Sequence record: PQ850613.1
DNA: 64,000 bases
Origin: Escherichia phage KarlSchell_Bas89
Direction: 5' to 3' (one strand)
Shown here: piece by piece, positions 22,695 to 28,893 of the stretch
How positions within the stretch are numbered: the stretch's first letter is position 1
Layout of the letters: each line of letters begins with the position of its first letter
Notes under the pieces: model-generated
Databases searched by the model: none
Seen by the model: the letters and a program-made list of their open reading frames with translations, nothing else
Told to the model about the DNA's origin: nothing
Made by a program: the position numbers and the translations under genes

Positions 22695-23177
22695 TTAGAT
22701 AGTTAATTTGTGATCTTCCTCCGCTCTGTTTCTGACAGAGACGGCTTCCTCTAGGGTTGAGAAAGTTCCTAGGTATTTAGTTTTACCTTTAATGTGTATG
22801 TTGGCTATGTACTTCCCTCTTGAATTGAGGTACACACCCTTAGCCCCTGAGGTGTTGTTAGAATTCAAACCCTTATTCCAAGAGTTATTCTCGTTGTTAA
22901 CCTCTCTAAGGTTGCCTATGGAATCATTGGAAGGATTTCGATCAATGTGGTCTATTTGATCTTTAGGTAAAACGCCATTAGCAAAATACCAAATGATATG
23001 GTATCTGTAAATAGCTCTTCCTTTCAATCGAATAAACACTCTTCCATCCTTTTTTGAAGTTCCTGCCTCATCACCTCGCCTGCATTTTGTTCCGTTGTGA
23101 ATTCTCCAGAACACTTTCCCAGATGATAAATCACAAACAAAGAACTCATCCAGAAGATCTTCTATCATATCATGCAA
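22695..23177 (-). CDS. HNH homing endonuclease with AP2-like DNA-binding domain
   Basis: IDHIDRNPSNDSIGNLREVNNENN plus YLGTFSTLEEAVSVRNRA. Confidence 0.75.
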   Translation of the reverse strand: MHDMIEDLLDEFFVCDLSSGKVFWRIHNGTKCRRGDEAGTSKKDGRVFIRLKGRAIYRYHIIWYFANGVLPKDQIDHIDRNPSNDSIGNLREVNNENNSWNKGLNSNNTSGAKGVYLNSRGKYIANIHIKGKTKYLGTFSTLEEAVSVRNRAEEDHKLTI

Positions 23178-25066: not shown

Positions 25067-25552
25067 TCAATGTGTGTGATTCCAATTTAATCCAATCTGA
25101 CAGTCAGATGCCAGAGGGCATTCCATCTTGAGATACTCACCAGCTTTCTTAACACAAAGCTCTGTAAGCTCTTTTAGCTTTTGTGCATCATTACGGTGAA
25201 CAGAGAACTGCCCTTCATCGTGCATGTCAATAACCTTCGCACAACGAACACCATCACGCTCAATCCACTTGTTAAGGAAAAGCATGGCATACTTCATAAC
25301 AATCGCACCAGCACTCTGTAAGAGAGTATTCAGTGCTTTATGAACCATTACCTTGCCTGTTGCATCACGTCTCATTGTAATACGACGACCATCAACACCC
25401 AAGATATAACCTTGAGCTGCTTTCTCTGTCATACGCTCAATAAGAATTGCAATACAAGGATTCTCTGCCAAGAAACGTGCTCTCATTACTGCACCTTCTT
25501 CAGAGCCTCCACCAACGATAGAACCGAGCTTAGCATCACCTGCCCCATCAAT
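25067..25552 (-). CDS. DNA polymerase (family A, T7 gp5-like), 3' segment (after the inserted HNH element)
   Basis: Frame open upstream of the listed Met gives IDGAGDAKLGSIVGG...; contains ALNTLLQSAGA and motif C HDE; protein ends in H like T7 gp5 (from memory). Confidence 0.7.
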   Translation of the reverse strand: MDGAGDAKLGSIVGGGSEEGAVMRARFLAENPCIAILIERMTEKAAQGYILGVDGRRITMRRDATGKVMVHKALNTLLQSAGAIVMKYAMLFLNKWIERDGVRCAKVIDMHDEGQFSVHRNDAQKLKELTELCVKKAGEYLKMECPLASDCQIGLNWNHTH

Positions 25553-26332
25553 AGTTCAAGCAAAGGCGCTACTCTTTGCTCCGTTCTCTTATGAACTGCT
25601 TACAGTTTCCTGTAAGATCGGACTATATCTTCATCTCCACCTTTACGTGCTGAGAGACAGGCGCTTCCGTAACACTTGTTACGTACTCCCTTCCGGGATA
25701 GTCTCTGAACTTTCCGTGACACAAACTTTTCTACATAGATCAATGAACTGAGCATCAGATAGTTTACCTTTTGCATTATTCACTTCCCAAGTTACCCATT
25801 GGACATTTCCAATTTCGTAACCTTTCGAATTATCCTTCCTATCTAAAGAAAGTTTATTCGGGTGTCCGCTGACGAAAGATAGTGAATCCCCTGTCAAGGC
25901 ACATTTGTAGTTTTGCTGAGAAAGAAGCTCGAATAAATAGTCTTGAGTAATCGTGAACTCAAAACCCCTTTCTCTAGCTCTGTGATGGGAGTTGTGATAT
26001 CTCTCACGAACCGCTCCACCCCAAGTTTGTCGATATTGTCCCATAGCAGCAGATGCTGCACTTCTGTTTCGACGTCTCCACTCATTTGAAGCAATGCGAG
26101 CACAATTTTTACATTGACATTGCTTTCCATCTTTACTCTTAGATGAATTATGGAAACTGTCGAGTGGCTTTTCTTCGCCACAGCTTGAACATATCTTTGT
26201 CATAAACACCTCCTTGTGTTGATGTTTATGTCACGGCTTAGCTGCTGATTGGCATATCTTTCGACTTAGCTTTCCAGCAATTCACCTGTTTTGCTTCTGC
26301 ACATTTCTATGCAGTGAACCAATTATTTAGTT
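25553..26332 (-). mobile_element. candidate group I intron carrying an HNH endonuclease ORF, inserted in polymerase motif B
   Basis: Upstream piece stops right after TFIYAF, downstream frame resumes at IDGAGD; about 780 nt between, containing an ORF with its own RBS; boundaries approximate. Confidence 0.45.
25679..26209 (-). CDS. HNH homing endonuclease (insertion-encoded)
   Basis: SLDRKDNSKGYEIGNVQWVTWEVN; own RBS AAGGAGG. Confidence 0.8.
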   Translation of the reverse strand: MFMTKICSSCGEEKPLDSFHNSSKSKDGKQCQCKNCARIASNEWRRRNRSAASAAMGQYRQTWGGAVRERYHNSHHRARERGFEFTITQDYLFELLSQQNYKCALTGDSLSFVSGHPNKLSLDRKDNSKGYEIGNVQWVTWEVNNAKGKLSDAQFIDLCRKVCVTESSETIPEGST

Positions 26333-27694
26333 AAAGGCATATATAAATGTCTTCGCATTGTCACGAGTAGGAAGACCAGCAAGTCTCTGGTTGTGGGAGT
26401 GGATATCACCTTCTAATAAAATGTCACGATACATAACAGCAGAAGCTAAACCACGTTCAGCCAATGCTTTCTTACCAGCGTTACCTTCTGCAATGGCTTC
26501 AGCAAGCATGTCTCTACACTCTTTAATGAGGTAGTGAGCAAGCATACGAAGCTCTAATCCAGAACCGTCATAACCTAAGAAGAGTTCTCTACCAGCTGGT
26601 ACATAATATTTATACAGACCTACCGGTTTGTCTTTCTTTCCGGGTTTTCCACGTTCGTAGATAACGTTTGTATTTTTTCGTAAGTAACACCCATCAGGGA
26701 TATTGTTGGTAATGATGAAAGGATAGTTATGACTATCATCTGTGGAGTAGTTAGATTGAAATAAACTCCTACACTCGTGACCAAACAAACCGCGAGAAGG
26801 AATATTAACAACAATGCGATGTTTAAAACGAAATGTCGGAGTAGCGCAGCTATTAGCTTCCGCTGAGAGTTTACCATCTGGACGTTCCTTATCAATCAGT
26901 CCATTAATCAAGCCTAGTCTGTGAGCCGCTACAACACGTCTCTTAAGCAGACTTCCCACTTTACCTAGATCACCCTCAAGACCTTCTTCAAGAGTCTCTT
27001 CGAGGTTTGTAGGAGCTGTGGGCCACTTGTTTGAAGTAGCTAATGCTCTCTTAATTTCATCAAAGGTTACAGGTTTCTTCCTGTTAGGGTTCAAACCTAA
27101 ACCAAAGACATAAGCCTTCATGTAGTTGACAGTTTTGTGACGGAAGTGCTTATCCAAGAACTTCTTGATATCAGCATCAACCATCTGAGCTGTCTGTCGC
27201 TCTTTCTCATTGCCACGCATCCAAGAGTTGTACCATTCTTGATACGTTCCACACTTACGCATGGCTCGCTTAATCTCAAATGTGTTCCAAGGCTTCTTAG
27301 ATGTATTAAATTCTGGAGGAAGAAAACCTTCATCCATCAGTGCTTCTTTAACTCGTGCATCCTTTGATGGGTCAAAGTCAACATACTCAACACAAGTAAA
27401 AGCTCCACCAATATCTTCTCTCTTTAACCCTACTCTGTCGCAATATAATTGAGGCCACTTCTGAAGAGCACCAGTCTTCTTAAAGGGTTTCATGTAAGTA
27501 GAGCCATCAACCCTCATCTTAGGTAACAGAGGAATTAATTCTCTGTCGATGTTAACGATAATCTCTCTGAGAAGGTGAACATACCACCGTGCATTCCTCC
27601 GATTAAAGTTGACACCACTCTTCGCTTGCTTTGAAATTATATCAGCGACAGTCATCTCCGTTAAGAACGGAAGTACATCAGGGTTCTCCATCAC
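26333..27694 (-). CDS. DNA polymerase (family A, T7 gp5-like), 5' segment of polymerase domain
   Basis: GYDGSGLELRMLAHYL (motif A) and LPTRDNAKTFIYAF (start of motif B) closely match T7 gp5 as recalled. Confidence 0.8.
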
Positions 27695-28398: not shown

Positions 28399-28893
28399 TT
28401 AACTAGAGCTTAAAGCGTGTCTGATAGCTGTATGGCTTACACCAAACATCCTACCTAAAGCTCTTGTTCCAAACTGAGCAGAACCTTTGACATAAAGGTT
28501 TTTAACTCTTTTAACATCCTCTGTATTAAGTTTCATTCTAGGGTTTATGTTCCTGTGATGGCCTACATTAAGACCTGTATCAAAAGAATGTTGAACATTC
28601 TCAGAAGCATCTGCCCACTCTAGATTCTCAATACGATTATCACTTTTTACACCATTCTTATGATTTATCTGAGGTTTGTTTTCAGGGTTAGGTATGAAAA
28701 AGGTTGCTATCAACCTATGAGCTTTCCATGACCTCCCTTCAAAATAAACCCTAATATAACCTTTAGTGTCTAAGTGGCCAGCCTCTTTACCCGGATGGCT
28801 CTTATTCCACTTAAAACCTTTTGAAGATGACTCTGTGTAAAACAGACGACCAGAATCTCTATCATAAGAGAGGTAGTCGGATATAGGAATCAC
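28399..28893 (-). CDS. HNH homing endonuclease
   Basis: AHRLIATFFIPNPENKPQINHKNGVKSDNRIENLEWADASEN. Confidence 0.8.
   Translation of the reverse strand: MIPISDYLSYDRDSGRLFYTESSSKGFKWNKSHPGKEAGHLDTKGYIRVYFEGRSWKAHRLIATFFIPNPENKPQINHKNGVKSDNRIENLEWADASENVQHSFDTGLNVGHHRNINPRMKLNTEDVKRVKNLYVKGSAQFGTRALGRMFGVSHTAIRHALSSS

Follow-up and report, generated by a model that had tools for sequence, protein, structure and literature searches.

A probable mobile group I intron of the IA2 type within the O-helix coding segment of the DNA polymerase gene of Escherichia phage KarlSchell_Bas89

The family A DNA polymerase gene of Escherichia phage KarlSchell_Bas89 (PQ850613.1, hereafter Bas89) is very probably interrupted by a mobile, self-splicing group I intron of the IA2 type, inserted inside a tyrosine codon of the O-helix, as judged from the sequence comparisons and RNA models reported here. 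The stretch of DNA analyzed, referred to as the window, comprises 64,000 nucleotides and is ~98% identical to Escherichia phage KBNP1711 (Nieuwekanaalvirus, Gordonclarkvirinae, phiEco32-like). All the genes in its polymerase part are carried by the minus strand, where an intervening sequence of 780 nt divides the polymerase gene. The upstream polymerase ORF (27694/27691..26327) has the C-terminus ...LPTRDNAKTFIYAFN-TAA. The downstream piece resumes in another frame with (T)IDGAGDAKLGSIVGG... and runs via FLAENP and MHDE to ...NWNHTH and a stop at 25067. The original prediction, made from the letters alone, had described both polymerase ORFs, the change of frame, and a third ORF in the middle, and all are present. 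The KBNP1711 record reports the polymerase as two CDSs with an 'endonuclease' in between, the intron being devoid of annotation.

Comparison with phage EP335, which is 97.6-97.8% identical to Bas89 and possesses an uninterrupted polymerase of 614 residues, delimits the insertion. Removal of positions 25549-26328 yields a 1845-nt CDS and a polymerase of 614 aa that align without any gap to those of EP335, with 40 nucleotide and 3 amino acid differences over the 1845 nt and 614 aa. Such a comparison with an intron-less homologue had been proposed as a check, and it returns a collinear gene with an identical junction. Pfam analysis of the separate pieces reports a DNA_pol_A hit for exon 2 (60.9 bits) and none for exon 1 or the middle ORF, while the spliced polymerase returns a single continuous DNA_pol_A match over the junction (84.5 bits, residues 361-611). 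Alignment with T7 gp5 assigns to exon 1 the motif A (LGYDGSGLELR) and the O-helix equivalents of T7 R518, K522, and Y526. The insertion point falls inside the codon of the tyrosine equivalent to T7 Y530, in agreement with the earlier proposal that the insertion splits motif B, i.e. the O-helix. We take T7 Y530 to correspond to Y766 of E. coli Pol I.

Two placements of the intron fit EP335, and only one of them combines a U as the last exon base with a terminal G in the intron. In this placement, the 5' splice site follows U26329, paired with G26320 in P1 as a U•G wobble (U•G in all five intron variants compared below), and the intron 3' end is G25549. The junction reads TFIYAFN/YGAGDAK, the tyrosine codon being rebuilt as T/AT, and is identical in the intron-less EP335. 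The predicted spliced RNA junction is AACT/ATGG (...GCCTTTAACT/ATGGGGCAGG), with the junction peptide TFIYAFNYGAGDAK. The original prediction had the right length, 780 nt, and placed the gap at 25553-26332, 4 nt away from the boundaries defined by EP335; its proposed junction, TFIYAF-IDGAGD, is replaced by TFIYAFN/YGAGD. It was this 4-nt shift that made the 3' end seem to lack a terminal G, a worry that the corrected end at G25549 removes. An in-frame UAA stop codon (26329-26327, minus strand) spans the 5' splice site, composed of U26329 and the first two intron bases.

Inspection for a P10 pairing between the guide and exon 2 returned nothing convincing, with at most one A-U pair with exon 2 AUGGGG. 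Some natural group I introns have a weak P10 or none, and its lack does not therefore exclude group I membership. The guide GGUUCA (26320-26315, minus strand) is also fully complementary to UGAACU (25559-25554), located 4 nt upstream of the 3' splice site. This pairing is used by the minimum-energy fold, and the variants keep only GUUC/GAAY, with zero compensatory changes.

Table 1. Coordinates of the features of the interrupted polymerase gene in the window.
Feature	Position	Strand	Description
Polymerase exon 1	26329..27691	-	codons 1-454 and base 1 of Tyr455; collinear with EP335 (L001:1610-3454)
Group I intron, IA2-like, 780 nt	25549..26328	-	starts AAAUAAUUGG, finishes ...CUAUUG, last G = 25549
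P1	26317..26332	-	exon AACU and intron AA (26332-26327) pair with guide UUGGUU (26322-26317)
P2 hairpin	26297..26314	-	CUGCAUA-GAAA-UGUGCAG; 2 pairs with compensatory changes
P3 5' strand	26283..26289	-	ACAGGUG; partner beyond the ORF, 25663-25657 (CGCCUGU)
P4-P5 domain	26243..26279	-	P4 UGCUGG/UCAGCA; P5/P5a with GAAA loop; Rfam and helix assignment
P6 and P6a 5' strands	26224..26242	-	GC; CCGUGACAUAAAC; partners after the ORF, 25726-25709 (GUUUGUGUCACGG...GU)
Local hairpin	26201..26230	-	CAUAAACAUC / GGUGUUUAUG; 10 bp, -11.3 kcal/mol, z = -4.1; predicted
Segment absent from LAMP intron, 476 nt	25743..26218	-	Shine-Dalgarno, AUG, and most of the endonuclease ORF
Endonuclease ORF, 174 aa	25679..26203	-	ATG 26203, TAA 25681-25679 inside P7.2; phrog_1035 1e-43
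Catalytic core 3' half	25621..25703	-	P7, P7.1, GUA, P7.2, P3 3' strand, P8
P7 (pseudoknot)	25703-25699 / 25625-25621	-	GACUA / UAGUC; Rfam and helix assignment
P7.1-GUA-P7.2	25698-25668	-	UCCC-GGAA-GGGA, GUA, CGUAAC-AAGU-GUUACG
Peripheral 3' hairpins	25558..25616	-	P9 CUUACAG-GAAA-CUGUAAG; P9.1 GUUC/GAAC; P9.2 GAGCAAAG/CUUUGCUU
Polymerase exon 2	25067..25548	-	Tyr455 codon bases 2-3, GAGDAKLG..., motif C (MHDE), stop

The sequence outside the endonuclease ORF folds into a group I core (Table 1). Rfam analysis reports two half-matches with the group I model RF00028, one covering P1 to P6 (34.7 bits, 26338-26041, minus strand) and the other P6' to P9 (48.1 bits, 25856-25599, minus strand). Neither reaches the gathering score (50), since the core is split by 476 nt of ORF lodged in P6a, and the intron is visible to Rfam only under E-value thresholds. 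A gathering-threshold scan of the whole window misses it and returns a tRNA as the only match, a single tRNA-Arg (anticodon TCT) at 53287-53363 on the minus strand. The ORF-less 304-nt intron of phage LAMP, whose core is identical, scores 100.8 bits (E = 6.6e-27, model positions 1-253), and its minimum-energy fold recovers most helices (z = -4.7). The covariance-model search suggested with the original prediction thus finds the core in halves in Bas89 and uninterrupted in the LAMP form. P7.1 and P7.2 lie between P7 and the 3' strand of P3 and are linked by GUA; such extra helices joined by G-U-A are the criterion for subgroup IA2 (PMC3428280).

Covariation was evaluated on an ORF-less alignment of five intron versions, Bas89 and four variants from metagenomic contigs, all at the same polymerase site. 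The four variants are 68-88% identical in the intron, and their host polymerases go down to 69% amino acid identity. Changes on both sides are found in 18 out of 87 pairs, with 98.4% of the cells being standard pairs, as compared with 0-3 such pairs and 32-43% pairing when the 3' partner was displaced by 1-3 columns as a control. P3 exhibits a C-G to U-A compensation in two variants, and the P6/P6a pairing co-varies in one, L017. Compensatory pairs also occur in P7.2 (four), P8 (two), and the peripheral P9-P9.2 hairpins (three and four). Hence the RNA-splicing reading of the original prediction is supported by the Rfam hits, the U•G pair and terminal G, the exact exon restoration, and the covariation alike.

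The same intron occurs in phage LAMP (Kuravirus), at the same site (L003:2001-2304), as a 304-nt form that corresponds to Bas89 intron nucleotides 1-110 and 587-780 without any mismatch. Judging from this comparison, the 476-nt segment that LAMP lacks is dispensable for the ribozyme. The LAMP intron keeps 16 nt of ORF-derived loop sequence, and this remnant suggests that its state results from an ORF deletion rather than being an ancestral ORF-less intron. While the intron is 100% identical between Bas89 and LAMP, the polymerase exons are only 81.5% identical. Moreover, of the 40 differences between Bas89 and EP335 in the 1845 nt, eight, all silent, cluster from -29 to +4 of the insertion, and at seven of these eight positions Bas89 shares the base with LAMP. 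Same-site intron variants are 82-88% identical in polymerases down to 69% amino acid identity. At the sequence level, the identity contrast and the flanking tract are the expected signature of homing with short co-conversion. The KBNP1711 intron (L005 / L002) is 781 nt long; an extra A in an A-run (homologue of 26111) throws the endonuclease ORF out of frame and accounts for the 'endonuclease' of 150 aa in the annotation, and three other substitutions are present.

The endonuclease ORF has its start in the loop of P6a, and its final codons coincide with the P6a and P6 3' strands, J6/7, P7, and P7.1. It is preceded by the Shine-Dalgarno sequence AAGGAGGT (26215-26208, minus strand), whose GGAGG core is 5 nt from the ATG. 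The protein comprises a Cys-rich N-terminal region and a C-terminal ββα-Me motif, SLDR...GY...N...N..K, for which a ββα-metal (HNH-like) fold is predicted. PHROG analysis reports hits with an endonuclease VII family (1e-43) and an HNH endonuclease family (1e-17). Searches against Pfam (E up to 10) and NCBIfam did not return any match, HNH families included, and the PDB sequences gave nothing meaningful. The canonical catalytic histidine at the end of β1 (D-H) is absent, the motif being S119-L-D121-R122. The prediction of an HNH ORF with its own ribosome-binding site is therefore right for the ORF, the Shine-Dalgarno sequence, and the predicted fold, while membership of an HNH family is putative. 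A large protein search returned 10 relatives. In a wider alignment with relatives down to 23% identity, D121, G128, Y129, N133, N142, and K145 never vary and R122 is almost invariant; closer relatives all share R122 as well.

Could the intron splice with an inactive endonuclease, as an immobile passenger heading for ORF loss? We consider this unlikely. Decay is indeed seen in the lineage, as the KBNP1711 frameshift and the LAMP deletion, and the missing histidine, together with the lack of any matching profile HMM of a characterised nuclease family, would suit a dead enzyme. However, the Bas89 ORF is intact, its exact protein is found on 26 independent contigs, and its dN/dS among the variants is 0.10-0.18, indicative of purifying selection; to judge from these figures, the gene is maintained. 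The near-invariance of the motif residues D121, R122, Y129, N133, N142, and K145 also argues against inactivity, as does the recent transfer indicated by the identical intron in divergent hosts and by the co-conversion tract. The endonuclease of this mobile intron may belong to an uncharacterised, His-less ββα-Me branch (S/H-L-D-R...G-Y...N...N..K) that has no Pfam model. This putative branch may recur in introns of different genes, namely the Bas89 polymerase, the RNA polymerase of phage PPWS1, and a second metagenomic intron located 17 nt upstream of the Bas89-type site, whose endonucleases in L014 and L017 have H-L-D-R. In the Pectobacterium phage PPWS1 (L004:2384-3095), a homologue with 32% identity lies ahead of a group I 3' core of similar type, both between two CDSs annotated as RNA polymerase, i.e. 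the same endonuclease family in a different gene.

A second alternative, which we hold to be highly improbable, is that no splicing takes place and that the polymerase consists of two separate polypeptides (454 aa and roughly 139 aa) that assemble, as for gene 39 of the G7C-like phage 10Gb. In that coliphage, a ~800-bp endonuclease-bearing insertion in the polymerase gene exhibits no Rfam match, yields no spliced RNA, and results in two polypeptides (bioRxiv 10.1101/542787), a precedent for a non-splicing insertion. It resembles Bas89 in its size and in the presence of an endonuclease ORF in a coliphage polymerase; in contrast, Bas89 possesses the full group I core that 10Gb lacks. The two polymerase CDSs annotated in KBNP1711 and an in-frame ATG at 25486 would fit a two-piece enzyme, but exon 2 has no canonical start codon in frame until 21 codons past the junction, leaving a C-terminal fragment devoid of YGAGDAKLGSIVGGGSEEGAV, including the tyrosine equivalent to Y530. 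Furthermore, an intact and co-varying core, which in its ORF-less form reaches twice the Rfam threshold, is unexpected for a non-splicing remnant, and the exact exon restoration against EP335 also speaks against this reading. Lastly, a conserved gene whose two halves flank an endonuclease ORF could also evoke an intein or a free-standing endonuclease gene without any RNA element, a practically negligible possibility: stop codons interrupt the reading of the polymerase (a UAA at the junction) and its frame changes, which rules out an intein, and the ~300 nt outside or overlapping the ORF that form a group I core rule out a plain insertion.

Besides the ribozyme, the intron RNA is predicted to form a local hairpin (26201..26230) that buries the 3' end of the Shine-Dalgarno sequence and the endonuclease AUG, using the P6a 5' strand. 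This initiation hairpin is predicted in four out of five variants, the minimum-energy fold of L014 being different. In L017, the most divergent variant, both hairpin strands and both P6a strands differ together. According to the model, the hairpin, covering the AUG and part of the Shine-Dalgarno sequence, probably holds down translation of the endonuclease. The P6a 5' strand would then have alternative partners, the initiation region or the distal P6a strand, which could couple ribozyme folding to endonuclease translation. A comparable situation is known from the T4 td intron, where translation of I-TevI is limited by RNA structure at the initiation region. Both are phage group IA2 introns with an ORF looped out of P6 and RNA structure over the initiation region, the control hairpin of Bas89 being a prediction only; they differ in that I-TevI is a GIY-YIG enzyme and the td host gene encodes thymidylate synthase.

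The following pathway can be proposed for Bas89. The ribozyme would fold in the pre-mRNA, and an exogenous guanosine would attack after U26329, held in P1 by the U•G pair. The freed exon 1 would then attack after G25549, and ligation of the exons would rebuild the TAT tyrosine codon and the 614-aa polymerase. On unspliced RNA, ribosomes would stop at the UAA spanning the 5' splice site. In mixed infection, polymerase alleles that lack the intron are probably nicked or cut by the endonuclease, an activity and a target that we infer; candidate target sequences are TTCAACTACGGAGC (EP335 type) and TTTAACTATGGTGC (4E8 type). Through recombinational repair, the recipient would then acquire the intron along with a few tens of nucleotides of the adjoining exon (homing).

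Phage Pol A genes have long been known to harbour IA2 introns with HNH-type ORFs, as in SPO1, SP82, Bastille, phiI, W31, phiL7, Pf-WMP3, and Bastillevirinae (PMC3428280, PMC11878797). The closest likeness is LAMP, which shares both insertion site and ribozyme, its 304 nt being identical throughout, while the 476-nt segment is lacking and the exons diverge as described. The LAMP record deposits the polymerase as a two-piece join, meaning that the intron was already recognised at the annotation level; the exact LAMP spliced protein was not found in the protein collection searched. In the DNA polymerase intron of Pf-WMP3, the ORF extends from P6a into P7.2, and the endonuclease ORFs of phiI and W31 lie in P6a (PMC3428280). 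Bas89 shares with these three the family A polymerase as host gene, the IA2 P7.1-GUA-P7.2 arrangement, the start of the ORF in P6a, and a stop codon right where the intron begins (PMC3428280). The nuclease motif of the Pf-WMP3 enzyme is likewise C-terminal and unconventional (PMC3428280). The Pol A insertion sites, in E. coli numbering, are 881 (phiI, W31), 674 (Pf-WMP3, SPO1, SP82, Bastille), and 676 (phiL7) (PMC3428280). The Bas89 site, at the tyrosine equivalent to Y530, differs from all three, and so does the host lineage (Gordonclarkvirinae). The introns of SPO1, SP82, and Bastille, encoding the nicking HNH enzymes I-HmuI, I-HmuII, and I-BasI, resemble that of Bas89 as group I introns in phage Pol A genes with a ββα-Me endonuclease and homing with co-conversion. 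Their enzymes, however, carry an N-terminal canonical HNH and NUMOD-type modules, whereas the Bas89 enzyme has a C-terminal motif without the first histidine and a Cys-rich N-terminus. A literature search on KBNP1711, phiEco32, Kuravirus, and LAMP found no published description of this intron. The element is of a well-known selfish kind, in a phage group and at a gene site for which we found no published description.

The O-helix segment harbours further insertions. In L014 (1173-1874), and alike in L017, a second group I intron of 685 nt with its own 161-aa H-L-D-R endonuclease is located 17 nt upstream of the first, with the mini-exon TATCTACGCATTTAACT between the two; the predicted splice sites restore KTFIYAFNYG. 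The Klebsiella phage KP12 (Vequintavirinae, L022:1864-3214) has two group I introns in Pol A (39 and 69.8 bits), the first of which splits the O-helix at ...KGVTYG/IMYGA (TYG/IMYG), three codons from the Bas89 site. From the sequences compared, this 10-codon stretch looks like a multi-intron hotspot with at least three distinct insertion points across phages, none of which is among the three sites listed in PMC3428280. Taken jointly, a His-less ββα-Me branch, a coupling of P6a to translation, and an O-helix multi-intron hotspot make a combination that is possible and that we advance tentatively, with somewhat more doubt than belief. Elsewhere in the polymerase, L009 (3485-4091) and ECBP2 (L007 from 2166) contain an insertion after codon 564 whose ORF matches Pfam HNH_3 and which scores weakly with RF00028 (26 bits). 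The ECBP2 polymerase CDS is annotated to end at this insertion, followed by an 'HNH endonuclease'; by its sequence, the insertion is probably another unannotated intron. The window also encodes two free-standing HNH endonucleases on the minus strand. One (28399-28893, 164 aa, phrog_59 3e-32) is located between two small conserved genes, its start overlapping the stop of the upstream gene, and its equivalent in EP335 is a 70-nt gap (L001:893-961); the other (22695-23177, 160 aa, phrog_99 1e-51) has no group I signal nearby.

These results leave the understanding of how such elements work unchanged. They extend the endonuclease-bearing IA2 introns to phiEco32-like coliphages and add sites of insertion within the part of the gene that codes for the O-helix. 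In KBNP1711-like phages, the polymerase, now two fragments and an 'endonuclease', should be described as one spliced 614-aa product, and a similar correction is probably due for ECBP2-like phages, in which the insertion after codon 564 is a candidate. The phages compared form a clean natural series, with an intact endonuclease ORF in Bas89, a frameshifted one in KBNP1711, a deleted one with the ribozyme intact in LAMP, and no intron in EP335, which is useful for following how the intron is gained, how its endonuclease decays, and how co-conversion proceeds in therapeutic-candidate coliphages.
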